NCBI GenBank assembly: GCA_037441385.1
Contig: JBBISH010000006.1
Span: 45,308-109,307 of the forward strand
Direction of reading: 5' to 3'
DNA length: 64,000 bases
Source of the DNA: Myxococcales bacterium
GTDB taxonomy: Bacteria; Myxococcota_A; UBA9042
Shown in pieces: positions 41,467 through 55,114 of the stretch. How positions within the stretch are numbered: the first letter of the stretch is position 1; the number at the start of each line of letters is the position of its first letter. A program made the translations under genes and the position numbers. The notes under the pieces were generated by a model, which searched no databases, was not told where the DNA came from, and saw nothing but the letters and a program-made list of their open reading frames with translations.

Positions 41467-42177
<711 letters not shown>

Positions 42178-42198
42178 GGTGGTCCTTTTCTGGGTCGG

Positions 42199-42471
42199 TT
42201 AGGCGGCCGGGGTCACGGCGTCGACGACACCCACGATCAGGCAGCGAATCGGGTTCTTGGGGTCGGCCAGGATCTGGCGGATGCCGTTGCCCTCGCGCAG
42301 GATGATCACCGTGTCGCCGGGTCCCGACTGGGCGTGGTCGACGGCGAGGAAGGTCTCGCCGGCGTCTTGGCCATGCTCGTCGATCGGCTGCACGCTGAAC
42401 ACCGCGTAGCTTTTCAGCCCCGGGTGCTTGATGGTCGAGACCACGTTGCCGATGACGCGCGCAAGAATCAT
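42199..42471 (-). CDS. Bacterial microcompartment vertex (BMC-P, EutN/CcmL) protein
   Basis: [16 protein letters not shown]...[12 protein letters not shown]...IVGVVD; 90 aa. Confidence 0.93.
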
Positions 42472-42493
42472 CTGGGGCTCCCTGCTGGATCGC

Positions 42494-42763
42494 CTACGCC
42501 TCGACGTGGACGTGGTCGACGATGGCGATGATGGCCGCGTCGACGGGCACGAACGCATCGGGCAACGCCAGCGCCGCCTCGCGGGATTCGGTGACATGCA
42601 CCAGATCGCCGGGCCCAGCCTGGGTCACGTCGGCGGCACACACCGGCTTGCCGCGCGGCTGGTCATCCTCGCCAACCGGCTGGACCATGAGCAAGCGAAT
42701 GCCGCCAAGCCCTTCGGCTTTCTTGGTGGCGACTACGGTTCCAATCACGCGGGCGAGAAACAT
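42494..42763 (-). CDS. Bacterial microcompartment vertex (BMC-P, EutN/CcmL) protein
   Basis: [15 protein letters not shown]...[12 protein letters not shown]...[11 protein letters not shown]; 89 aa. Confidence 0.93.
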
Positions 42764-42814
42764 GCGCGCGACTTTGGCACAAGCACGCCCCCACCGCAAG
42801 CGGACACGGGCCCC

Positions 42815-42981
42815 CCGATCCGCCGCTTTGGGCGCAACTCGGCGTTGCTGCGTCGTCCCAGCTACGGGTTGCCCCACTGGGGCGACCCGTTCACCCTTCG
42901 GGCGACCGCTGGGGCCCTTCTCCCTGCGGCGACCTTTAGGTCGCCTCAGTCGCTCCGCTCCTTGCGCCTTGATTTGCATCC
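42815..42981 (-). repeat. 167-bp structured intergenic repeat, copy 2
   Basis: Reverse complement of 30518-30684 with one mismatch. Confidence 0.9.
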
Positions 42982-43088
42982 AGGGGTCCTCGTGGTGGCC
43001 GCAGGCCAGAAAAGCAGTCCAGTGGACTGCTTTTCAGCGGGGATCGGCGGCCGGGGCGAATTTCGATGCTGGATCCTGGGGTGCAGCC

Positions 43089-44252
43089 TCAACCCTCTTG
43101 GCCGTCGATGCGCGGCCGGGTCAGGATCGGCCAGTACACCACCGCAAACACCGCGTAGCCCGCCGCCCACAGCACGCCCGCAAGCAGCACCAGGTTGGGG
43201 TCGCCGCCAAAAACCCGCAACAGCGCGCCCGCGATGACCAAGTAGTAGGCCACCACGGTCGGCGGCGCCGCCACCAGCGGTCGGCCCGAGTGCCCCAGCG
43301 CCGCGCGCGATGCCACCGCCAGGATCATCACGCCGATGGCACCGGCGGTCAGGGCGTGCAAGGCGGCAAACGCGCCGATCGGCCCGCCCAGGTCGCTGAT
43401 CCCCTTGAGCAGAAACCCCAGCGGAATGAAGGCATAGCCGGCGTGCAGGATCCACACGAGCGGCAGCCGGCGCGTCTGCCAGGTCCGCCAATGACGCATG
43501 CGCAGCCCCGTCACCAGCGCCGCCGCCAGCGCCCCCCCACCGCTCGTCGCCGAAAATGGCACGGCCAGCTCGGACACCACCACCAGCGCGACCAACGGCA
43601 CCGCCGCGCGATCGAGCCAAGCTGGCGTGCTGCAGGCGTGCTCGGCATGGCCGGCCTGGCGCAGCGCGTTTTGGGTGAAGCTGGGCACGATCCGCCCGCC
43701 GATCAGCGCAATCAGCGCGGCGATCAGGTACACGGCGGCGTGCAGGGCCTGGGCCTGCAACGGCCCAGCGGGCGCCAAATGGTACAGCAGGTTCAAGCCC
43801 CACAGCGCCAAAAGCATCGCCACCACCTGGTAGTTGCGGGCGTTCTTGGCGCGCAGGATGTCCAGGCCCACCCAGCCGGCCAGAATCGGCAGGAACAGCA
43901 GGTCCAGCGGCCAGGCCGGGATCCCGGCCGGGGTCAGCGCCATGCCCAGCCGCCCCAACAGCCACGCCACCGCCAGCACCCCGGCGCGCGTGCCGCGAAA
44001 CAGCGGGCCCTGCGTCCACTTGGGCACCGCCGCCTGCAGGAAACCGCCCACTGCGGCCACCGCAAAGCCAAAGATCAATTCATGGCCGTGCCACCACGGC
44101 GACAGCGGCAGGTGACCGCGCCAGGCCAGCAGCCACGCGGTCAGGGCCAGCGGCGCAAAAATCCCGGCGGCCAGGAACAGGCTGCGGTGGCCCGAGGCCA
44201 AGAAAACCGGGCCTTGCCAGCGCTGCGATGTCGGTCCAAGAGGTATCGGCAT
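43089..44252 (-). CDS. nnrS: NnrS family membrane protein
   Basis: GHRSLFL, WHGHELIFGF, GFLQAAVPKWT, GGRIVPSFT, WILHAGY, LHALTAG, RAALGHSGR. Confidence 0.92.
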   Translation of the reverse strand: MPIPLGPTSQRWQGPVFLASGHRSLFLAAGIFAPLALTAWLLAWRGHLPLSPWWHGHELIFGFAVAAVGGFLQAAVPKWTQGPLFRGTRAGVLAVAWLLGRLGMALTPAGIPAWPLDLLFLPILAGWVGLDILRAKNARNYQVVAMLLALWGLNLLYHLAPAGPLQAQALHAAVYLIAALIALIGGRIVPSFTQNALRQAGHAEHACSTPAWLDRAAVPLVALVVVSELAVPFSATSGGGALAAALVTGLRMRHWRTWQTRRLPLVWILHAGYAFIPLGFLLKGISDLGGPIGAFAALHALTAGAIGVMILAVASRAALGHSGRPLVAAPPTVVAYYLVIAGALLRVFGGDPNLVLLAGVLWAAGYAVFAVVYWPILTRPRIDGQEG

Positions 44253-44369
44253 GGTCGTCTCTCTGTCCACTGCGGGGGCAAGCGCCTATACTCCCCCGCG
44301 TCCGGCCATGTTAGGATAAAACGATAAATAAGTCTATAGACGATCGCACCGCGGTCGAGAGAGCCTGCG

Positions 44370-45803
44370 ATGAGCCGCAAGAATCGCCCGTACCAGTTCT
44401 ACGACACCACTGGCGCCGTGTGCAGCACCTGCCTGCGGCAGATCGAGGCCAAGGTGGTCATCGAAGCCGAACGCGTACTGCTGGACAAGTGGTGCCCGGT
44501 GCACGGCATGGAGCGCGTGTTGCTGGCCGATGACCCCGAGTGGTACCGCCTGGGCCGCGAGGTGTTTGTCAAACGGCCCGAGATGCCGGAAAAGTTCAGC
44601 ACGCAGATGGAGTTCGGCTGCCCGTACGATTGCGGCCTGTGCCCGGACCACATGCAGCACTCGTGCCTGACCGTGCTCGAGGTCACCGACCACTGCAACC
44701 TGCGCTGCCCCACCTGCTACGCCGCCTCGGGGCCCGAGCGCACCACCCACCGGCCGCTGACGACGGTGATCGCCATGCTGGACGCGGCGGTGCGCAATGA
44801 GGGCGAGGCCGACGTGGTGCAGATCTCGGGCGGCGAGCCGACCTTGCACCCCGACTTCTTTGCGATTTTGGACGCGGCGCGCGCGCGGTCGATCCGCCAC
44901 TTGATGGTCAACAGCAACGGTCTGCGCATCGCCCAGGACCAGGACTTTGTGACGCGGCTGGCCGAGTACAAGAAGGGCTTCGAGATCTATCTGCAATTCG
45001 ACTCGCTGCAACGCGAGCCCCTGCTGGACCTGCGCGGCGCGGACCTGCGCTCGGTGCACAGCAAGGCCCTGGACAACCTGAACGCCGCTGGGATCTCCAC
45101 CACCCTGGTGATGACCGTCAAGCGAGGCGTCAACGACGGCGAGATCGGCGCGGTCCTCGACTACGCCCGCCAGCAACCCTGCGTGCGCGGTGTGACGCTG
45201 CAACCGGTGCAAGAGGCGGGGCGCTGCGATCACTTCGACAGCCGGCAACACCGCCTGACCGTGAGCGAATTGCGCCGCAAGATCGCCGAGCAGTTCCCGA
45301 CCCTGACCTTGCGCGACATCGTGCCGGTGCCGTGCAACCCCGACACGCTGGCGATGGCCTATGCGATTCGCCAGGGGCCCGAGCTGGTGCCTCTGACCCG
45401 CTACCTGGACTACCAGACCTTGGTCGAGGGCGGCGGCAACACCATCGCTTTCGAGCGCGACCCGCAGTTGCGCGACAAGGTCTTCAGCCTGTTGTCGACG
45501 GGGCACTCGCCCGAGAGTCAGGCGAATTGTTTGTCGGATTTGCTGTGTTGCCTGCCGCAAGTCGCCGCGCCCAGCCACCTGGGCTACCAAGACGTGTTCC
45601 GCGTGCTGATCGTGCAGTTCATGGACGCCCACAACCTGGACCTGCGGGCGCTGAAAAAGAGCTGTGTACACATGGTCCAGCCCGACGGGCGCATGATCCC
45701 GTTCGAGAGCTACAACCTGCTGTACCGCGACGAGCGGGCGCAGACGCTGGCGCAATTGCGCAGCGAGCTCAAGGCTTTTCATCAACTCCGCTTGGGTCGC
45801 TAG
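44370..45803 (+). CDS. Radical SAM protein, MJ0619/Tes (GDGT-MAS)-like family
   Basis: N-terminal CSTC...CPVHG, CPYDCGLCPDH auxiliary motif, CNLRCPTC, QISGGEPTLHP, YLQFD, C-terminal KKSCVH..PDGRMIPFESYN. Confidence 0.88.
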   Translation: MSRKNRPYQFYDTTGAVCSTCLRQIEAKVVIEAERVLLDKWCPVHGMERVLLADDPEWYRLGREVFVKRPEMPEKFSTQMEFGCPYDCGLCPDHMQHSCLTVLEVTDHCNLRCPTCYAASGPERTTHRPLTTVIAMLDAAVRNEGEADVVQISGGEPTLHPDFFAILDAARARSIRHLMVNSNGLRIAQDQDFVTRLAEYKKGFEIYLQFDSLQREPLLDLRGADLRSVHSKALDNLNAAGISTTLVMTVKRGVNDGEIGAVLDYARQQPCVRGVTLQPVQEAGRCDHFDSRQHRLTVSELRRKIAEQFPTLTLRDIVPVPCNPDTLAMAYAIRQGPELVPLTRYLDYQTLVEGGGNTIAFERDPQLRDKVFSLLSTGHSPESQANCLSDLLCCLPQVAAPSHLGYQDVFRVLIVQFMDAHNLDLRALKKSCVHMVQPDGRMIPFESYNLLYRDERAQTLAQLRSELKAFHQLRLGR

Positions 45804-45808
45804 CGCAG

Positions 45809-46519
45809 CTACTTCGGTTTGTTGCAGCAGATCGCGGGCGCGCATGAGCCGATCACGAATTCCACGCCATATTCCACGGTTTTGCGTCGCCAGCACAGGG
45901 CGTTGTCGCCGCATTCCGAGTCGTCGGTGCACAGCATCGAGCACCAGGCTGGCGCGTCGGGACGGATCGCCACGGGGCAAGTCTTGGCGGCCAGGTTGCC
46001 CGCGCAGTCGCTCATGGTCGTGCAGGGCTTGCCCACGCCAAAGTTGTTGACGCTTCCCGAGTTGCAGGGCTGCGTGCAGGTGGCGCCGTCGGGAATGTCG
46101 ATGGAATACGTCGCGGCGCACTGGACCGGCATGCAAACCTTGGGCTCCTTGGGGCCGCGCGGCACGCAGACGCCGCCGTCGCCGCATTCGTTCGGCATGC
46201 CAAAGCAGTACTGGGCGCAGAAGTGCGGGGCGCCGTTGCCCAGGTTGTTCAAACAGGTCACGGCGTCCTGGCCGTAGCAGTCTTCTGGCTTGTTGCAGGG
46301 CTTGCCCAAGCCGCTGCTGTTGACGGGCGTGGCGGCGCAGGGCGGGCCCACGGCAGCGTCGCCAGCGTCCAACGAAGTATCTGATTTTGAGTTGGTTGCG
46401 CTGTCCGTGTCCGCGCTGGCGTCTACGGCGCCGCTCGTAGCCGGAGTGGTGGCGGGGCTGCTGCAGGCCAGCGCAAGCCATGTGGCCACGGCGGCGAGCG
46501 GGCGGATCGGGTACGGCAT
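45809..46519 (-). CDS. Cys-rich lipoprotein with two internal repeats
   Basis: Lipobox ALAC; two VN..G.GKPC....DC.G....C modules. Confidence 0.8.
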   Translation of the reverse strand: MPYPIRPLAAVATWLALACSSPATTPATSGAVDASADTDSATNSKSDTSLDAGDAAVGPPCAATPVNSSGLGKPCNKPEDCYGQDAVTCLNNLGNGAPHFCAQYCFGMPNECGDGGVCVPRGPKEPKVCMPVQCAATYSIDIPDGATCTQPCNSGSVNNFGVGKPCTTMSDCAGNLAAKTCPVAIRPDAPAWCSMLCTDDSECGDNALCWRRKTVEYGVEFVIGSCAPAICCNKPK

Positions 46520-46687
46520 GGTGGCCTGGCACGGGCAGCGGCCCACCGTTGCAGTCTACGCGGCGCATCCGGCAAAAGCACCCGCAACTTCTGGGCAATG
46601 GTTTGGCCGGCTTGCCCTTGCGGCCTTGTTGCAAGGGTCGAAAGCGACTAGCCTTCTTGGCACCGGCTTCTTGCTGGGCGGTGTGCG

Positions 46688-48055
46688 ATGCGCGTAGCCC
46701 TGGTCAATCCGCCGTGGATGTACAAGCGCCTGTATACGCACGGGATCTACCCGCCCTACGGCATCTTGATGCTGGCGACGCAGCTCAAGCTGGCCGGCCA
46801 CGACGTGCACCTCCTGGACGCCAACGCGCTGGAGTGGAGCGAGGACGAGACCCGCGCCCGCATTGCCGCGTGCGACCCCGATGTACTGGGAATTACAATT
46901 TTTACCGATGGGTTTGGCTTTGCCGAACGCACCGGGCCGTGGTGGAAGCGCCATTCCGGCGGCAAACCGCTGCTCATTGGCGGGCCTCTGGTGTCGGGCG
47001 CGCCGCAGACGCTGCTTCGGGCCAGTCAGGCGGACGTGGCGGCAATCGGTGAGTCGTTTGTCTCGGGGCCGCAGCTCGTGGCGGCGCTCGAAAAAGGCAC
47101 ACCGCTGAGCGAGGTTGCGGGTCTGATCCTGCACCACGCCGACGGCAGCTTGCAGCCCACCGGACCCACGCCGGCCTGGGGCGACCTGGACACGCTGCCC
47201 CTGCCCGACTGGGACCTGTTGCCGGTGGAGCTGTACCTGCAGGGCGGCATGCAGCCGTTCTTCAAGAAGCGCAGGATCAATCGCTACTTGTCGACCATCA
47301 CCACACTGGGCTGCGCCTGGCGCTGCAGTTTTTGCCAGGTGCCCGACCTGTACCCAGGCGTGCGGGCCCGCGATCCCGAGCGGGTGGCCGACGAGATCGC
47401 CCTGTATCGCGAAAAGTATTCCATTGGGGGAATGTACTTTCGCGACGACATCCTGTTCCGTCCCGGCAAGATCGCCGAAGCACTGGGTCGCAAGGTTCCG
47501 GGCCTGCCCTGGAGTTGTCTGCTGCGCGCCGACATGATGACCGACGCCGTGCTGGCCAAGATGGCGGCGGGTGGCTGCGTGGAGATCCGCGTGGGGTTCG
47601 AGAGCGGCGACGACTTGGTGCTGTCGCTGGCCAACAAGAAGACCGAGGTGGCGCAGAATCGCCGCTGCATCGAGCTGGCGCGCAAGCACGGCATCGCCAT
47701 CTCGGGCTTTCTGATCGTAGGTTTGCCCGGCGAGACGGAAGAGAGCCTGGCGGCCACCGAGCGGTTCGTGCGCGAGATGCAGGTCCGCGTTTCGGTTCAC
47801 TTTCCTTTGCCGCTCCCTGGCACGGACCTGTACCGTCAGACGCTGGCGCGCGGCGAGATCGGCGACGAGGCGGCCCTGTTGCGCAAGTTTTCGGAGCCGC
47901 AGCTGCCCGGCGCGGTCCTGCAACCGCCGCCCATCAACCAGTGCGATCTGCCCGAGGACGTGCTGGTGCACTGGGCCATGCGGCTTGCCGCCGCTGGTCA
48001 GGCCGCCGATGATGCGGCGAGCGCGCCCACTGGCCACGCCGACGCGCCGTTTTGA
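46688..48055 (+). CDS. Cobalamin-binding radical SAM protein (class B type)
   Basis: VNPP..YPPYG..LA, IGGP B12-binding domain; GCAWRCSFC; FRDD; GFESG; LIVGLPGET; PLPGTDLY. Confidence 0.9.
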   Translation: MRVALVNPPWMYKRLYTHGIYPPYGILMLATQLKLAGHDVHLLDANALEWSEDETRARIAACDPDVLGITIFTDGFGFAERTGPWWKRHSGGKPLLIGGPLVSGAPQTLLRASQADVAAIGESFVSGPQLVAALEKGTPLSEVAGLILHHADGSLQPTGPTPAWGDLDTLPLPDWDLLPVELYLQGGMQPFFKKRRINRYLSTITTLGCAWRCSFCQVPDLYPGVRARDPERVADEIALYREKYSIGGMYFRDDILFRPGKIAEALGRKVPGLPWSCLLRADMMTDAVLAKMAAGGCVEIRVGFESGDDLVLSLANKKTEVAQNRRCIELARKHGIAISGFLIVGLPGETEESLAATERFVREMQVRVSVHFPLPLPGTDLYRQTLARGEIGDEAALLRKFSEPQLPGAVLQPPPINQCDLPEDVLVHWAMRLAAAGQAADDAASAPTGHADAPF

Positions 48056-48071
48056 GCCCGCACGAGGTGCC

Positions 48072-50642
48072 GTGAGCCTTCCTTTGCCGACCCTGGACCA
48101 ACTCCGCCACGACTTGGGCGCGTTGGGGCTCGATCGCATGGCCCGAGCGGGGTTGCGGCGCGATCCGGGGCAGTACAACCTGCTGGTGCACATCGTGCCG
48201 CCCGAGGTGGCCAAGGATCACGCCGCCAGCGACCTGGTGGCCGATCGCCTGGCCGAGCCGCCGGGGCCGCTGTGCCTCTATGTCCACATCGCCGCTTGCA
48301 CCGGCCGCTGCACCTTTTGCCACTACGCCATCGAGGTCAACCCGAGCGACGAGCAGACTGAGCGGTACCTACGGGCGCTGGAGACGGAGATCACGGCCCG
48401 CTGGTCCGGCTTGGACGAGCGCAGCCCGGTCCGCTCGCTGATGATCGGCGGCGGCACCCCCACCTACCTCAGCGCCAAGCAACTTGACAGACTTTTCAAG
48501 CACTTGCATGGCACGGTTCGCCTGGATCCCGGCATCGAGCTGACCATCGAGGGCTCGCCCGAGACCATCACCCGCGACAAGCTGCAGGTGCTGAAGGACC
48601 ACGGCGTCAACCGCCTGAGCCTGGGCATCCAGAGCTTTGACGACGCCATGCTGCGGCTGCTGGGCCGGCGCCACGACCAGCGCGGGGCCCTGCACAGCCT
48701 GGAGCTGGCGAGGGAAATCGGCTTCGATCACCTGAACTTGGACCTGATCTACGCCTTGCCGGGCCAGACCCTGGAGGGGTGGCTGGCCGACGTGGCCCGC
48801 GCCGCCGACTTTGGCATCGACAGCCTGACCACCTACCACCTGCGCAAGCGGCCCGACACGGTCATCTCGCGCCACGCCTCGCCCGCCGAAGACCTGAATC
48901 TTTTGATGCATGTCGGGGCACTGCGGGTGCTGGAGGAGCGCGGTTACCGGCAGTCGCTGGTCGACTACTTCTGCAAGCGGGAGTTGGAGACCGCCCAGGT
49001 CCAGGCCCGCGACAAATGGCGCGACATGCAGCCGGTCGACGGGGTGGGGCTAGAGGCCTGTTCGCGCCGCCGTGGGGTGATCGCTTTTGATCACGCCGAG
49101 TTTTCGACGTGGATCGCCGCGGTGGAAAACGGCGACGGGCCGCGCGGCTGGCCGCTCGCGCATGGGCGGCTGCTGTCGATCGAAGAACAGATGGCGCAGC
49201 AGGCCATGTTCGGCCTCAAGGTCCTGGATCCGGGCGGTGGTCTGGACAAGGCGGCGTTTGCCCGCGACTTCGGCAAGACTGTGGACGAGGTTTTTGGCAG
49301 CGTTCCCAGCGAGTTGATGGACGCCGGCGCGCTGACCGACACCGGGACGCACCTGCAGTTCACGCCCGGCGGGACGCTGCTGGGCGACGAAGTGTGCCAG
49401 CGCTTCTACACCGAGGAGCTGCGCCGCAAGATGGTGTCGCGGGTGCGGGTGCGCGCCGAGGGCAGCACTGTGGCCGTGCCCCGGGGCAGCGAGCGGCAGG
49501 CGATTGACTCGGCCGAGGTCTTGGTCATTGGCGCCGGCGTGGCCGGCCTGCACACCGCCGCGGCGCTGGCGGCGGATCTGGGCGCGGGCGTGCTGCTGGT
49601 CGAGGCCGAGGGCGAGATCGGCCGTGGCGCTACGGCCGCCGCTCTGGGCGGCTTTCGCACGCAATTTGCCGATCCGCTGCTGGCCGAGCTGACGGCGCGG
49701 TCGCTGCAGTACTATCAGAAGCGGGCGCTGGGACCGGACGGCCATCGCCTGGGCCTGCAGCGCGACGGCTACGTGTTCTTGGTGGCCACTGCGGCGGACC
49801 GCGCGCTCTGCGAGGCTCAGGCCACGATCGCCCGCCAGCACGGGCAGGCGCTGCAGTGGCTGGAGCCCAAGCAACTGGCTGATCTGATTCCAGGTATCGC
49901 CACGGACGACCTGCTGGGCGCCTGGTACGGGCCCGACGACGGCCGCTTGGACCCGCACGGGGTGGCTTGGCTGGCGCGGCGCGATCTGCTCGAGCGCGGC
50001 GGCCGGCTGCGGCTCGACACGCCCGTCCAAAAGCTGAGGCTGCACAAGGGCTCGGTGGTGGGCGTGGACACGGCGCGCGGCTGGATCGCGGCGCGGCAGG
50101 TGGTGCTGTGCACGGGTGCGGCTACGCCCCAGCTGCTGCAGCAAGCCGGCGTGACGCTGCCCCTGGCGGTGGACAAGCGCCGCATCTTGATGGCCCAAGG
50201 CGCGGATCTTCCAGGCTATCCTGGGCCGCTGGTGCTGGGGCAGACGCCGCCGCTGTACTTCCGGCCCGAATCCAACGGTCTGCTGGTGTCGGCGCGCGAG
50301 CTGAGCAACGACGACGACTTGCCCTGGGACGCGGTGGTCCGCGAGCGGGCGATGGCGCGGCTTCCAGTGCTGAAAACTGCCCGCTGGATCCCGGGTTGGA
50401 GTGGTCAGCAGACCCACAGCCGCGACGGCCGGCCGCTGGTGGGGCCGTGCCCAGGGTTGGAGGGCGCGTTCCTATGCACTGCGTTGGGCGGCGCGGGGAT
50501 CATGCACGCTCCGGCGGTGGCGACCCTGGCGGCGGGTTGGGTGCTGGGTACCGCCGATGGCGCGCTGGCGGAGGAGCTGGATCCGCGGCGGGACCTTGGT
50601 CGCGGTCTGACACAGCTGCGCGATTTGCCGCCAGTAGGGTGA
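48072..50642 (+). CDS. Fusion: HemN-like radical SAM domain plus FAD-dependent DAO/sarcosine-oxidase-beta-like oxidoreductase
   Basis: LYVHIAACTGRCTFCHY, GGGTPT, NRLSLGIQSF, DLIYALPGQT; in the same frame VIGAGVAG, GATAAALGGFRTQF, DGRLDP, SRDGRPLVG, GAGIMHAP. GTG start with GAGGT RBS. Confidence 0.88.
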   Translation: MSLPLPTLDQLRHDLGALGLDRMARAGLRRDPGQYNLLVHIVPPEVAKDHAASDLVADRLAEPPGPLCLYVHIAACTGRCTFCHYAIEVNPSDEQTERYLRALETEITARWSGLDERSPVRSLMIGGGTPTYLSAKQLDRLFKHLHGTVRLDPGIELTIEGSPETITRDKLQVLKDHGVNRLSLGIQSFDDAMLRLLGRRHDQRGALHSLELAREIGFDHLNLDLIYALPGQTLEGWLADVARAADFGIDSLTTYHLRKRPDTVISRHASPAEDLNLLMHVGALRVLEERGYRQSLVDYFCKRELETAQVQARDKWRDMQPVDGVGLEACSRRRGVIAFDHAEFSTWIAAVENGDGPRGWPLAHGRLLSIEEQMAQQAMFGLKVLDPGGGLDKAAFARDFGKTVDEVFGSVPSELMDAGALTDTGTHLQFTPGGTLLGDEVCQRFYTEELRRKMVSRVRVRAEGSTVAVPRGSERQAIDSAEVLVIGAGVAGLHTAAALAADLGAGVLLVEAEGEIGRGATAAALGGFRTQFADPLLAELTARSLQYYQKRALGPDGHRLGLQRDGYVFLVATAADRALCEAQATIARQHGQALQWLEPKQLADLIPGIATDDLLGAWYGPDDGRLDPHGVAWLARRDLLERGGRLRLDTPVQKLRLHKGSVVGVDTARGWIAARQVVLCTGAATPQLLQQAGVTLPLAVDKRRILMAQGADLPGYPGPLVLGQTPPLYFRPESNGLLVSARELSNDDDLPWDAVVRERAMARLPVLKTARWIPGWSGQQTHSRDGRPLVGPCPGLEGAFLCTALGGAGIMHAPAVATLAAGWVLGTADGALAEELDPRRDLGRGLTQLRDLPPVG

Positions 50643-50649
50643 GGCCGCG

Positions 50650-50883
50650 ATGGCGCTCGACGATGGGCGGCAACGGGGACAAGCTAGGTATCTGCGGGGA
50701 CTTGAGTTCCGCCTGGGGCCGTGGGCCCCGGTGGGCGAAGGCAGGGACCACGATCACTGTGGCTACTGCTGGGCGAAATTCTCCATGGCCCAAGAGGATC
50801 TGCATTCCGGGTGGACGGACACCGCGCACGAACATTGGATCTGCGAGGACTGCTACCGAGACTTCGCCGACCAATTGCGGTAG
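50650..50883 (+). CDS. Small CxxC...CxxC putative zinc-binding protein
   Basis: DHDHCGYCWAKF...WICEDCYRDF; starts 7 nt after the previous stop with a GAGG RBS. Confidence 0.7.
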   Translation: MALDDGRQRGQARYLRGLEFRLGPWAPVGEGRDHDHCGYCWAKFSMAQEDLHSGWTDTAHEHWICEDCYRDFADQLR

Positions 50884-50989
50884 GCCTCGCGCCGTCGTGT
50901 CACGGGCTCGTCTCTATCCCCTTGTCAGGAAAGCATGAAATCGGCATTATCACAAATAGAGAAACGGGGCTTTCTCTATTTGGTAAGTC

Positions 50990-52423
50990 ATGCTGAAGAT
51001 TGCCGAAGCCGACATTGCGGCCCGCCTGCGGGCTGACAACCCGTGGTGGAGCGCCCCGCCCACCCGCAGCTCTGCGCCGCTTGCCTGGCCGCGCCGGGCC
51101 TACTTTGTCGCCCTGCTGCGGCTGCTCGACCTCCCCGTACAGCGAGCGATCATCTTGCTCGGCGCTCGCCGGGTGGGTAAGACCACGCTGCTGCGGCAAG
51201 TCATCGGCGAAACGGCGCTCGCCGACCCAGGCCGACCGATCTTGTATGCGTCGATCGATGCCCCAACCTATACCGGCCTGTCCCTTGACGATCTTCTGGG
51301 TCTTTTCGTGCGTGTCTGGCCACACGACGCCACGGGCCCAAGGCTCGTTGTCTTCGACGAAATCCAATATCTGTCCGAGTGGGAGCGACACCTCAAAGAC
51401 TTGGTCGACCGCTACCCGAACACTCGCTTTGTGGCAAGCGGTTCAGCCGGCGCGGCGCTGCGGCGAAAGAGCCAAGAGTCCGGCGCCGGCCGGTTCAGCG
51501 ACTTTGAACTCCCTCCACTTACGTTCGCTGAATTTCTTGAATTTGTTGGACAACTTGATCAGGTCATCGACCGATCTGCTCCTGTGCCGCGCGCCCGCGA
51601 TATCGGTGCGCTGAACGCGCTGTTCGTAGACTACGTGAACTTTGGCGGCTATCCCGAGGTCGTGGCCAACGCGGCGATTCGTGACGACCTTGCCCGCTTC
51701 GTTCGCAGCGACATCGTCGACAAGGTGTTGCTTCGCGACCTGCCGTCGCTGTACGGGATCTCCAACATTCCAGAGTTAAATAGGCTGTTTACGACGGTCG
51801 CCTACAACACGGGTCAGCTTGTCAGCTTGGACGCTTTGTCGAAAGGGTCGGGTATCAGCAAGCCGACACTGAACAAGTACTTGGAGTACTTGGAGGCGGC
51901 CTTTTTGATCGTACGGTTGCGGCGCGTCGATCAGAATGCTCGTCGATTTGAACGTGAGCGCGATTTCAAGGTGTACCTGACCAATCCGTCCATGCGGGCT
52001 GCGCTTTTTGGCCCCGAGACGATTGACGGCGCGGCGATGGGAGCGCTGGCAGAAACGGCACTTGTCACGCAATACCTGCACGCCCCGATGTTTGCCGACT
52101 TGGCCTTCGCGCGGTGGAAGCGCGGCGAAGTAGACCTGCTCGCCCTGGACCCGGCGACGCAGCGGCCGCGTTGGGCCCTGGAGGTCAAGTGGTCGGATGG
52201 CGCACCCGAGCGGCGCAGCGCGTGGACGCACCTGCTTGATTTCGCGGCGGCCAACCAACTCGACACCGTCCACCTGACTTGCCGTGCGGGCGAAGAGCAT
52301 CGAGGTTCGGGGAGTCCCCAGTGCGTGATTTGGCAACATGCGTTGCTCTGCTATCAGATCGCCACGCTTGCGGCCTCTCAGGCCGCAGTGCTGTCGCGGC
52401 ATGGGCTGCCGCCGCAGCCGTGA
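50990..52423 (+). CDS. AAA_14-type ATPase with DUF4143/PD-(D/E)xK-like C-terminus
   Basis: GARRVGKTT, FDEIQY, ASGS, ESGAGR, GGYPE, YLEYLEAAFL, KVYLTNP, GEVDL...LEVKW. Confidence 0.88.
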   Translation: MLKIAEADIAARLRADNPWWSAPPTRSSAPLAWPRRAYFVALLRLLDLPVQRAIILLGARRVGKTTLLRQVIGETALADPGRPILYASIDAPTYTGLSLDDLLGLFVRVWPHDATGPRLVVFDEIQYLSEWERHLKDLVDRYPNTRFVASGSAGAALRRKSQESGAGRFSDFELPPLTFAEFLEFVGQLDQVIDRSAPVPRARDIGALNALFVDYVNFGGYPEVVANAAIRDDLARFVRSDIVDKVLLRDLPSLYGISNIPELNRLFTTVAYNTGQLVSLDALSKGSGISKPTLNKYLEYLEAAFLIVRLRRVDQNARRFERERDFKVYLTNPSMRAALFGPETIDGAAMGALAETALVTQYLHAPMFADLAFARWKRGEVDLLALDPATQRPRWALEVKWSDGAPERRSAWTHLLDFAAANQLDTVHLTCRAGEEHRGSGSPQCVIWQHALLCYQIATLAASQAAVLSRHGLPPQP

Positions 52424-52475
52424 GGCCCGTGGCGCAATTCGATCCGTAAAACGCCCATCTGCCTGCACTTTGCCC

Positions 52476-52504
52476 TTGCTGGACCGGTCCCCTTGGCGTA
52501 GAAT
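52476..52504 (+). promoter_or_regulatory. Sigma-70 promoter of rpsB-tsf
   Basis: TTGCTG-17 nt-TAGAAT followed by a GC-rich discriminator. Confidence 0.55.
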
Positions 52505-52586
52505 GCCGCGCCCCGCCCGGGCGGACTTGGCGTTCGTTTTGGGCTGGGACTAGGGTAAGTAGAGAAAAGCAAGCGCTTTTCCAAGC

Positions 52587-52700
52587 AACACATGCCCCGG
52601 CACCGGTTCGTCGCAGCGAAGTGCGCTGCCCGTCCGGCGCAGAGTTCCGTGCGGAAAGCTCGCCTTTCCGTGCACTGCGGGGCAGAGGTTCAACGGAGCT
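52587..52700 (+). promoter_or_regulatory. Putative structured rpsB leader (S2 autoregulation)
   Basis: Long 5' UTR with closing stem TGCCCCG...CGGGGCA and internal hairpins. Confidence 0.4.
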
Positions 52701-52717
52701 AGGATACGGAGTTTAGA

Positions 52718-53539
52718 ATGGAAACGGTAACTGTTCGCGATATGCTCGAAGCCGGCGCCCACTACGGTCACCAGACCCGCCGCTGGAACCCCAAGATGAA
52801 GCCGTACATCTACGGCGCCCGCAACGGCATCTACATCATCAACCTGGGCCGCACCGCCAAGCTGCTGAAGGACGCGCAGAACTTCCTGTCGCGTCTGACC
52901 GCGCGCGGTGAGCAGGTGCTGTTCGTGGCGACCAAGCGCCAGGCCCGCGACATCGTTCGCGAAGAGGCCGCCCGCGCCAAGATGCCCGTCGTCGCCCACC
53001 GCTGGCTGGGTGGCACGCTGACCAACTTCCGTACGCTCAAGACCTCGATCGAGAAGCTGGCGGAGATCGAGCACATGCTGAGCCCCGAGATGGCCGGCCG
53101 CCTGCCCAAGAAGGAGCTGAGCAACCTGGGCAAGCAGCGCGACAAGCTGATGCGCAACATCGGCGGTCTGCGCGCCATGCCGTCGATGCCGGGCGCGATC
53201 TTCGTGGTCGATCCCAGCGAGGAGCACATCGCCATCGCCGAAGCGCGCCGCAAGGGCATCCCGGTCGTGGCCCTGTGCGACACCAACGCCGACCCGGATG
53301 TCTGCGACTACATCATCCCCGCCAACGACGACGCGATGCGCTCGATCCGCCTGTTCGTCAAGGCCGCCGCCGATGCCTGCATCACCGGCGCGCAGATGTC
53401 GCGCGACCAGATGGGCCGTGATTTCGAAGGCGGCGCGACCACTTCGGCGGCGACGGACAACGTGGAAGTGATCCGCAAGCCGCGCCACGTCGAGACGGTC
53501 GTGGACGACAGCGACGAAGGCGACGACGAGGAGGCGTAA
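52718..53539 (+). CDS. rpsB: 30S ribosomal protein S2
   Basis: LEAGAHYGHQTRRWNPKM, RWLGGTLTN, DTNADP, PANDDA. Confidence 0.98.
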   Translation: METVTVRDMLEAGAHYGHQTRRWNPKMKPYIYGARNGIYIINLGRTAKLLKDAQNFLSRLTARGEQVLFVATKRQARDIVREEAARAKMPVVAHRWLGGTLTNFRTLKTSIEKLAEIEHMLSPEMAGRLPKKELSNLGKQRDKLMRNIGGLRAMPSMPGAIFVVDPSEEHIAIAEARRKGIPVVALCDTNADPDVCDYIIPANDDAMRSIRLFVKAAADACITGAQMSRDQMGRDFEGGATTSAATDNVEVIRKPRHVETVVDDSDEGDDEEA

Positions 53540-53595
53540 GCCTTCGACTCTGCTCCAGAACTACCCTACTCACCATTCCGTTTCAGGAGATGACC

Positions 53596-55114
<1,519 letters not shown>

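Follow-up and report, generated by a model that had tools for sequence, protein, structure and literature searches.

Why would a member of the radical S-adenosylmethionine (SAM) enzymes and a flavoenzyme of an amine-oxidising type be made as one polypeptide? The question is raised by a gene at positions 48072-50642 (forward strand) of a 64,000-nucleotide stretch of DNA from a Myxococcales bacterium (contig JBBISH010000006.1, positions 45,308 to 109,307), hereafter called the window, in which an original prediction made from the letters had noticed a HemN-like domain fused to a DAO/sarcosine-oxidase-type flavoenzyme. We find the fusion to be one of about 11 enzymes that, along with lipoproteins, are inherited together as a module. 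The explanation that we favour, to which we give about an even chance, is that the fused protein tailors one small nitrogen-containing intermediate in two successive steps, first an oxidation and then the addition of a SAM-derived methylene. What the analyses below establish is the fusion itself, the fold of each half, the conservation of active-site residues and inheritance together with partner genes; the putative pathway, which a few genomes of a single uncultured Myxococcota family have in common, is apparently undescribed.

Two enzyme halves in one reading frame

The fused gene and its parts are the following.
48064-48067, forward strand: GAGG, a putative Shine-Dalgarno-like signal read from the sequence, 4 nucleotides before the GTG and within the 16-nucleotide gap after the upstream gene
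48072-50642, forward strand: fused gene, 856 amino acids (P0001), HemN-like radical SAM half plus DAO-family flavoenzyme half
48279-48782, forward strand: radical SAM core, residues 70-237 (Pfam; residues invariant in 15/15 aligned sequences; mapped to NocN)
48783-49436, forward strand: remainder of the HemN-like half, residues 238-455, including HemN_C at residues 372-437 (49185-49382)
49437-49508, forward strand: linker, residues 456-479 (24 amino acids), 6 of 24 positions invariant
49518-50537, forward strand: DAO-family flavin adenine dinucleotide (FAD) domain, residues 483-822 (Pfam, alignment, structure comparison)

The frame opens with GTG at 48072, closes with TGA at 50642 and holds 856 codons with no stop inside, which confirms the single uninterrupted open reading frame (ORF) of about 856 residues first proposed. 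Its start residue is matched by that of P0003, a homologue with 90% identity. Pfam placed Radical_SAM at residues 70-237 (87.5 bits), HemN_C at 372-437 (25.4 bits, cut-off 24) and DAO at 483-822 (174.2 bits, cut-off 27.9). Every motif cited in the original prediction was found, at residues 72 (HIAACTGRCTFC), 126 (GGGTPT), 182 (LSLGIQSF), 224 (DLIYALPGQ), 309 (QVQARDKW) and 487 (GAGVAG, the GxGxxG motif), and the linker that it had placed at about 49420-49510 lies close to that position. The core carries Y70, C76/C80/C83 (CxxxCxxC), GGGTP at 126-130, R181, R199 and D224, and residues 238-455 add the family-specific motifs YHLR (255-258), DY (298-299) and QARDKWRD (311-318). In the FAD domain we located GxGxxG (487-492), an acidic residue at 511, R529, Q531, R703, Y729, R731 and GxxH (809-812).

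A full-length AlphaFold2 model built on a 15-row alignment (mean predicted local distance difference test (pLDDT) 82.9, predicted template modelling score 0.55) shows two confident halves joined by a low-confidence linker, with pLDDT below 50 at residues 456-475. The halves matched separately in Foldseek, the SAM half to HemN (1olt) and the flavin half to sarcosine oxidase beta and proline dehydrogenase. The FAD oxidoreductase half is complete, as the original prediction had claimed.

The fusion is genuine and rare

A search of 5.8 billion proteins returned 32 matches, among them 14 near-full-length fusions at 51-90% identity and a fifteenth fusion cut at its N-terminus; the others show at most 42% identity over less than half of the query. 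Conservation of the fusion in the 14 near-full-length homologues rules out a lost stop codon. In a second study (run X3), a contig runs across the junction over 49377-49539 with 11 differences and no gap, the 7 listed differences all being synonymous third positions, and together with the 14 conserved fusions it also rules out an assembly chimera. The junction support rests on assembled contigs; another of these, from run X1, covers the entire gene with 0 differences and may be the source of this DNA. The check for a lost stop thus gave one continuous frame, relatives fused likewise and a gap-free bridge. Flags reading '1 TGA' in some searches lie outside the frame, and the fused ORFs are intact in loci L058 and L060-L063. 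Between the genome of the window (G000) and G005, dN/dS came to 0.085 in the SAM half, 0.028 in the linker and 0.147 in the flavin half, which are rough values since they come from one pair, the NG86 method and sequences with high GC3.

Fusion carriers account for 7 of 107 class genomes, all within the 37 genomes of one family (f1), so that the architecture, first noted as unusual, is real and rare. A pattern scan of the GTDB species collection found it at 5 full-length and 2 contig-end loci only, mostly in uncultured Myxococcales. None of 72,556 plasmid records covers 80% of the query (two rhizobial matches from this search have unrelated neighbours), and atlas searches returned generic family names alone. 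The original prediction knew of no characterised example; none turned up in the literature searched, which was covered at abstract level with subscription papers mostly outside it, and neither the fusion architecture nor the gene cluster is described there.

The SAM half likely acts as a class C enzyme

Both halves lie in known superfamilies, but neither passes the tests for a named family. CxxxCxxC was found in 18/18 orthologues, and Radical_SAM and HemN_C score above the Pfam cut-offs. Out of the NCBIfam models, NF006067 (STM4012) scored highest with 222.6 bits against a cut-off of 380, followed by TIGR00539 (HemW; 189.6 bits, cut-off 205.4), TIGR00538 (HemN; 164.6 bits, cut-off 324.95) and TIGR04107 (ChuW/HutW; 154.1 bits, cut-off 400); the HemZ model also stayed below its curated cut-off. 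The HemN motifs GPRYTSYP and RNFxGY and the HemW motif HNxxYW occur in 0/18 orthologues, as do each of the MenK/MqnK motifs YFxxxRxE, GxxFxxxYxGGGT, QxTxYPL and NxFxxxxY, which were scored without a positive-control sequence. HemN and MenK motif definitions came from PMC10320005, and further definitions from PMC9692996 and PMC13459092. Elsewhere the genome encodes a genuine HemN (547.8 bits) and a genuine HemW (252.4 bits), each of which passes its motif and cut-off tests. On these grounds we rejected identity as HemN, HemW or MenK. The original prediction had found HNxxYW and RNFQGY unrecognisable and had doubted that the protein is a haem chaperone or coproporphyrinogen dehydrogenase; HNxxYW and RNxxGY are indeed absent, and its doubt was justified.

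The same results bear on the idea that the protein does a housekeeping job, be it for haem (HemN/HemW), in menaquinone methylation (MenK), or for the synthesis of thiamine (ThiO) or cobamides. The nearest named models are STM4012, HemW, HemN and ThiO, and the genome has thiG and no ThiO above the cut-off, but all named-model scores fall short, the signature motifs are missing, the genuine HemN and HemW lie elsewhere, and the fusion was not found in 30 of the 37 relatives. CobS and CbiB were not found in this genome (91% complete), which speaks against a cobamide role and led us to discard a lower-ligand or CobD function. Such a housekeeping role is largely refuted and we find it scarcely credible. 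Because neither CobS nor CbiB was found, B12 would be imported.

According to PMC10114718, a class C enzyme attaches a SAM-methylene radical to an sp2 carbon and requires an sp2 acceptor. A HMMER alignment, from which the residue numbering was counted by hand, maps NocN Y34, R153, D196, S225, Y227, R230 and Y276 to Y70, R181, D224, T253, Y255, R258 and Y299 of the fusion, all invariant in 15/15 sequences. Within the second-SAM and catalytic set of NocN (Y34, Y96, R153, D196, S225, R230, Y276), 6/7 residues are kept, S225 as Thr. PMC12871812 gives these NocN residues roles in second-SAM binding, cation-pi contact and proton shuttling; it reports that the contact made by R230 is not seen in HemN and that Y276 matters for catalysis. 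The position of Y299 is never Tyr in six stand-alone outgroup proteins. Because six of the seven NocN residues are kept, the SAM half likely works like a class C C1-transferase.

Other HemN-like fusions were seen, namely P0027, P0048, P0042 and P0124, joined to Amino_oxidase (949 amino acids), PRTase-CE and DUF7436-like domains; several of them rank among the nearest outgroups of the SAM half. ANME-1 archaea (L027-L037) have a HemN-like protein with the same CTGRCTFC motif and 33-38% identity over part of the SAM half.

The flavin half resembles secondary amine dehydrogenases

The flavin half is a member of the DAO/sarcosine-oxidase superfamily (PF01266), as its score above the cut-off, GxGxxG with the acidic residue and two-domain fold indicate. 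In the VIA-align list, which covered the flavin half, L-proline dehydrogenase beta (1y56_B) is the best structural match at Z 43.5 (root-mean-square deviation 2.5, 362 aligned residues), with sarcosine oxidase beta tied. G487, G489 and G492 of GxGxxG, R529, Q531, P628, R703, Y729, R731, D785, G809 and H812 are invariant in 15/15 sequences, and position 511 is acidic (E or D) in all 15. Position 522 is A, G, S or V, and the His of the dimethylglycine dehydrogenase GSTWH loop, the residue of covalent FAD attachment, is therefore missing. The fusion reads WSGQQT where 4ysh reads WSGIRP and so is without the glycine oxidase Arg, which in W-x-G-x-R-P serves carboxylate binding. Its GIMHAP resembles GIIHAG and GFMMAP of solved structures.

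Scores for TIGR02352 (ThiO; 98.5 bits, cut-off 250.8), TIGR01373 (SoxB; 66 bits, cut-off 529.45) and NF002480 (MnmC; 54.3 bits, cut-off 540) were all too low, the Pfam scan of the fusion shows no GcvT-type C-terminal folate domain, and the N-terminal half is a radical SAM enzyme, not the class I methyltransferase of MnmC. With scores below cut-off or signature residues and domains missing, identity as ThiO, SoxB, dimethylglycine dehydrogenase/oxidase or MnmC was rejected. The pattern suggests a dehydrogenase that binds FAD non-covalently and acts on a secondary or cyclic amino acid, and from the two invariant arginines its substrate would be anionic.

The two halves can be separated

A profile search of 1.84 billion representatives and a 'shorter' search returned two orthologues that consist of the SAM half only, P0036 and P0188 (54-57% identity), both of which stop at about residue 460 of the fusion, whereas P0037 is an intact stand-alone orthologue of the flavin half. 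The contig of P0188 has the same length (8,874) as one that carries an rSAM-A orthologue. In P0035 (L045:9884-12250) the SAM half is intact and the flavin half has lost about 120 residues and GIMHAP, retaining only the Rossmann start, GPCPGL and DPRR; its branch is long (1.74), and its neighbours are a HypB-like GTPase and an ABC-type ATPase, the module partner genes being missing. The SAM halves form one clade (100/100, long stem) in which P0036 is sister of P0035, and P0037 groups with the fused flavin halves apart from other DAO proteins (100/100). In the free tree the two SAM-only proteins are nested among fused ones; an approximately unbiased test did not reject a single fused clade (p 0.07). 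P0036, P0037 and P0188 may be genuinely split genes, or sequencing frameshifts may have produced them. Since SAM-only, flavin-only and flavin-decayed orthologues all exist, the fusion appears not to be obligatory.

These orthologues bear on the suggestion that the flavin domain is a built-in reductant for the [4Fe-4S] cluster, a part of the original prediction that we find poorly supported, because SAM-only (P0036, P0188) and flavin-gutted (P0035) orthologues exist and the domain is of the substrate-oxidising proline/sarcosine dehydrogenase type. More broadly, the flavin half could trade electrons directly with the SAM half, either as reductant of the cluster or as a sink in a NosN-type oxidative outcome. 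The linker is conserved (dN/dS and invariant positions given above), and class C reactions need electrons in or out (PMC10114718). However, the domain has no second nucleotide-binding domain, orthologues persist with no working flavin half, and the module holds other iron-sulphur (FeS) carriers, a ferredoxin insert in an LdpA-like protein and a 2Fe-2S subunit. Such direct exchange is in our judgement improbable. Amine-oxidase flavins are far too oxidising to reduce a SAM-bound cluster, and for this reason only the electron-sink version is plausible.

The flavin half might instead be a non-catalytic or dispensable binding or scaffold domain, all chemistry being done by the SAM half. The decay of P0035 and its sister P0036 without a flavin half fit this idea. 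Against it, FAD-binding and putative substrate-site residues are invariant across 15 aligned intact fusions under purifying selection, and P0037 survives as an intact stand-alone protein; we consider a scaffold quite improbable. A fusion that is conserved yet separable, within a module of this kind, would be explained most simply by two consecutive steps on one intermediate, by analogy with MnmC.

A co-inherited module of enzymes

The fused gene directly follows its first partner.
46688-48055, forward strand: B12-binding radical SAM 'A' (rSAM-A, P0002, 455 amino acids), directly upstream of the fusion with a 16-nucleotide gap

rSAM-A is found in 7 of the 37 family f1 genomes, the identical set to the fusion, and so are a second B12 radical SAM (rSAM-B), an aldolase-like gene and a dedicated HisC paralogue. 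The HisC paralogue gave E 4e-64 or better in the seven and 2.5e-41 or worse in 21 other genomes (E-value limits were chosen per search by the analyst); outside the family the aldolase-like gene had one weak match in 70. An FAD oxidoreductase (PF12831) and CoxL occur in six of the seven and in G011. Across 401 sampled phylum genomes, with 4-5 candidates scored per genome, the LdpA-like gene and rSAM-A were each present in 6, all among the seven. Occurrence of GGACT and HAD was checked in the examined loci and the genome of the window.

In loci L021, L022 and L023 the enzyme set forms one cluster in three gene orders. It comprises the fusion, rSAM-A, rSAM-B, a xanthine-dehydrogenase-family molybdenum (Mo) enzyme with FAD and 2Fe-2S parts, the PF12831 FAD oxidoreductase, a tandem gamma-glutamylcyclotransferase, an HpcH-like aldolase, an LdpA-like FeS barrel, a HisC-like pyridoxal phosphate enzyme and a TIGR01548 HAD hydrolase. 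The genome of the window has all module enzymes, scattered over C6:38404-39900, C5:88994-92462, C32:30627-33011, C32:50044-51994 and C180. Across the three clusters we found no conserved carrier protein, kinase, prenyl-, acyl- or glycosyltransferase, transporter or regulator. No riboswitch was found in 10 loci or in window positions 42000-54000, and searches of the Protein Data Bank (PDB) named no functional relative for rSAM-A, the FAD oxidoreductase, the LdpA-like protein or the lipoproteins.

HisC and HAD were rejected as ordinary histidine genes since a separate hisC adjoins hisB on C51, and a link to phototrophy was dropped with Photo_RC in 0/37 family genomes. The LdpA-like copy at L023:14392-15264 is without the ferredoxin insert present in the other five aligned copies. 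In G013, contig C1:1-3920 (L016) carries a second rSAM-A and a fusion fragment that are 87-93% identical to the window proteins, against 60-70% for the main copy of this genome; it is probably bin contamination.

One could read the module as catabolic, degrading or salvaging an outside N-heterocycle by lipoprotein capture, Mo and flavin oxidation, removal or movement of groups by radical SAM chemistry and aldolase chain cleavage. The best scores of the Mo enzyme are to the models for XdhA and for 4-hydroxybenzoyl-CoA reductase (378 bits with either, short of the cut-off), aldolases of the HpcH kind typically act in catabolism, and in G011 the oxidative half occurs together with lipoproteins. 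On general grounds, however, three radical enzymes that consume SAM are costly and usually biosynthetic, a conserved transporter or regulator is missing from the clusters, and the closest outside relative of the aldolase lies in a sugar-biosynthesis-like locus (L073). We hold a catabolic module to be very unlikely.

Lipoproteins and accessory neighbours

Divergent from rSAM-A lies the window's member of a lipoprotein family that accompanies the module, and an amidotransferase gene follows its relatives in other places.
45809-46519, reverse strand: Cys-rich predicted lipoprotein, two copies of an 8-9-Cys module, divergent from rSAM-A
G000:C6:34526-36535, L106:6236-8131 and L109:3437-5350: AsnB-type amidotransferase

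The lipoproteins carry two or three 8-9-Cys modules of about 85 residues each (N-x-x-G-x-G-K-x-C ...) and have no Pfam, NCBIfam or PDB sequence match. Besides the window gene, members lie at G000:C6:36564-38278 and in L101, L102, L104, L105 and L106. The family is present in 8 of the 37 genomes, the seven fusion genomes and G011, in several copies each, and its genes are interleaved with module enzymes and a beta-propeller lipoprotein, adjoining rSAM-A, rSAM-B, GGACT or the beta-propeller depending on the genome. Invariant module residues are Cys, Gly, Ala and Pro only, with no invariant Trp or Tyr. The beta-propeller was found in 3/3 further fusion genomes tested (one at 29% identity) and in 0/2 without the fusion; it has a weak QH_beta match (E 1.2e-6, far below cut-off). 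In G000, G007 and G011 the lipoprotein genes are followed immediately by the AsnB-type amidotransferase (TIGR01536; 327.5 bits, which exceeds the cut-off), and it has close matches in G005 (80%) and G013 (40%); G017, G096 and G099 gave generic paralogues only and no close match. We treat it as a putative accessory gene and not as a core member.

Could the enzymes mature these lipoproteins, with a cofactor attached to or formed in the Cys-rich modules and paired with the beta-propeller? Methylamine and quinohemoprotein amine dehydrogenases offer a comparison for cofactor-bearing modules paired with a beta-propeller. The exact co-occurrence with the fusion genomes and G011, the placement beside different module genes in different genomes, the QH_beta match and the ligase after the lipoproteins all favour such a role. 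The aldolase, HisC, HAD and Mo-hydroxylase are nevertheless small-molecule enzymes, the module offers no invariant Trp or Tyr, a close AsnB match is missing from three fusion genomes, and the Pfam scans show no peptide-recognition domain. Lipoprotein maturation therefore seems unlikely to us.

A second, divergent HemN-like radical SAM gene (518 amino acids) stands beside lipoproteins in G099 and G096 (L101:16600-18156 and L103:129-1730, 76% mutual identity). It has no close match in G000, G005, G013, G017 or G011, and its best match in four other genomes is the SAM half of the fusion (29-32%); this gene too is treated as a candidate accessory.

The neighbourhood in the window includes further genes. 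A TrsS/Tes-like radical SAM gene (44370-45803, forward strand; 310.9 bits where the cut-off is 490; Tes 257.3, cut-off 450) adjoins the module and is absent from the syntenic locus L020, as is an AAA_14/DUF4143 ATPase gene inserted in a stretch of lower GC (about 0.63-0.64) between the fusion and rpsB (50990-52423, forward strand). At 41467-42979 (reverse strand) a class II aldolase-like gene and two EutN/CcmL-like genes, read from their translations, suggest microcompartment parts. Elsewhere in the genome (G000:C39:9223-12335) a ThiH/HydG-like gene (297 bits, below the ThiH cut-off) and a weaker neighbour are possibly hydrogenase maturases.

A two-step reaction as the favoured role

We place the oxidation first and the SAM-methylene addition second, because class C chemistry depends on an sp2 carbon and C=N or enamine carbons arise from DAO-type oxidation. 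In step one the flavin half, similar in build to L-proline dehydrogenase beta or dimethylglycine dehydrogenase and with its FAD bound non-covalently, would act on a secondary or cyclic amino acid and oxidise one of its C-N bonds, yielding an imine or enamine. In step two the SAM half would bind two SAMs, make a SAM-methylene radical and add it to the newly exposed sp2 carbon, giving a methyl, a methylene bridge or a ring with release of S-adenosylhomocysteine; the fusion would keep the unstable imine close. The coupling of radical chemistry with amine oxidation that the original prediction had proposed would thus fit, as sequential pathway steps. Around these steps the aldolase, HisC-like transaminase, HAD phosphatase and LdpA-like FeS barrel may build a scaffold from pyruvate and a phosphorylated aldehyde, which the two B12 radical SAMs, the Mo-hydroxylase, the second flavoprotein and the tandem gamma-glutamylcyclotransferase would decorate, and the Cys-rich and beta-propeller lipoproteins may bind or use the product outside the cytoplasm. 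The enzyme list suggests a free, methylated, nitrogen-containing small molecule.

Several observations weigh against this reading. The NocN Y96 equivalent is M or L in the aligned fusions, and the SAM-only P0188 has Asn in place of Y299. Mean pairwise identity is lower in the flavin half (50%) than in the SAM core (66%), and in P0035 the SAM half persists with no intact flavin half and outside the partner-gene locus. The seven fusion genomes are kin (5 genera, 3 genomes in one), so that the shared occurrence of these genes does not count as seven independent events. In G011 (84% complete), L085 on C3 and L106 on C78 carry the Mo enzyme, FAD oxidoreductase, GGACT, DJ-1, lipoproteins and AsnB, but the genome gave no radical SAM, aldolase or spare HisC matches, and G007 (81% complete) is without matches for two partners and holds the fusion as contig-end pieces only. 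Finally, we infer the step order and the shared molecule from the fusion alone.

A bolder version, which we find doubtful but worth stating, is an undescribed biosynthetic system of about 15 genes with the fusion at its core. Its three radical SAMs, Mo-hydroxylase and pair of flavoenzymes would produce a new N-heterocyclic cofactor or signal, methylated several times, and pass it to the lipoprotein modules, a new disulfide-rich family; here the fusion would couple flavin oxidation directly to class C chemistry, with an imine for radical C1 addition and FAD as electron sink. Such direct coupling is an enzyme logic that has no described example in the literature searched. To our knowledge characterised class C radical SAM enzymes number only a handful, and none with a flavoenzyme was found in the abstracts covered. 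The supply of the sp2 substrate and the disposal of electrons vary among class C enzymes, and the single-chain fusion makes this question testable. The set of partners has sharp limits, and in L022 (2261-16551) and L023 (3681-18819) it fits into a single piece of less than 20 kb. An uncultured Myxococcota family thereby offers an orphan pathway that can be cloned, together with a likely new metabolite and a type of lipoprotein module outside Pfam, NCBIfam and PDB sequence matches.

Comparison with known systems

The STM4012 family (NF006067), whose function is uncharacterised, is the highest-scoring model, but the fusion stays below its cut-off and has different neighbours. HemN/CgdH (PDB 1olt) is the best PDB sequence match of the SAM half (E 5.5e-51; Foldseek template modelling score 0.79 over the target), whereas GPRYTSYP, RNFxGY and HNxxYW are missing and both the HemN and HemW cut-offs are out of reach. 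Likely similar in mechanism are the class C enzymes (NocN/NosN (PDB 9p2u), TbtI, C10P, Jaw5 and ChuW), which like the fusion combine a HemN-like core with a C-terminal domain, and NocN shares with it the second-SAM Tyr, the bridging Asp and the R230, Y227 and Y276 equivalents. Unlike them, the fusion has a whole DAO domain and its own YHLR and QARDKWRD motifs, does not keep Y96 and lies in a cluster with no machinery for polyketides or for ribosomally made and post-translationally modified peptides; the partner of C10P is a methyltransferase and not a flavoenzyme, and PMC10114718 describes no flavoenzyme fusion.

On the flavin side, L-proline dehydrogenase beta (1y56_B), sarcosine oxidase beta and the dimethylglycine dehydrogenase N-domain share the fold (Z 41-43.5), GxGxxG, the GxxxR loop, the DP motif and a similar C-terminal motif. 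The fusion differs from them in having no covalent-flavin His, in Arg703, which replaces the His of PYKHQ, in the absence of an alpha subunit or folate domain, and in being joined to a radical SAM enzyme. MnmC differs in that its methyltransferase is a polar class I enzyme where the fusion has a radical SAM half, and the fusion has no tRNA link. MnmC also matches the fold of the flavin half (3ps9 and 3awi, Z 36.7), and in the synthesis of tRNA mnm5U it unites a SAM methyltransferase and a DAO-family oxidase in one chain that act sequentially on one substrate.

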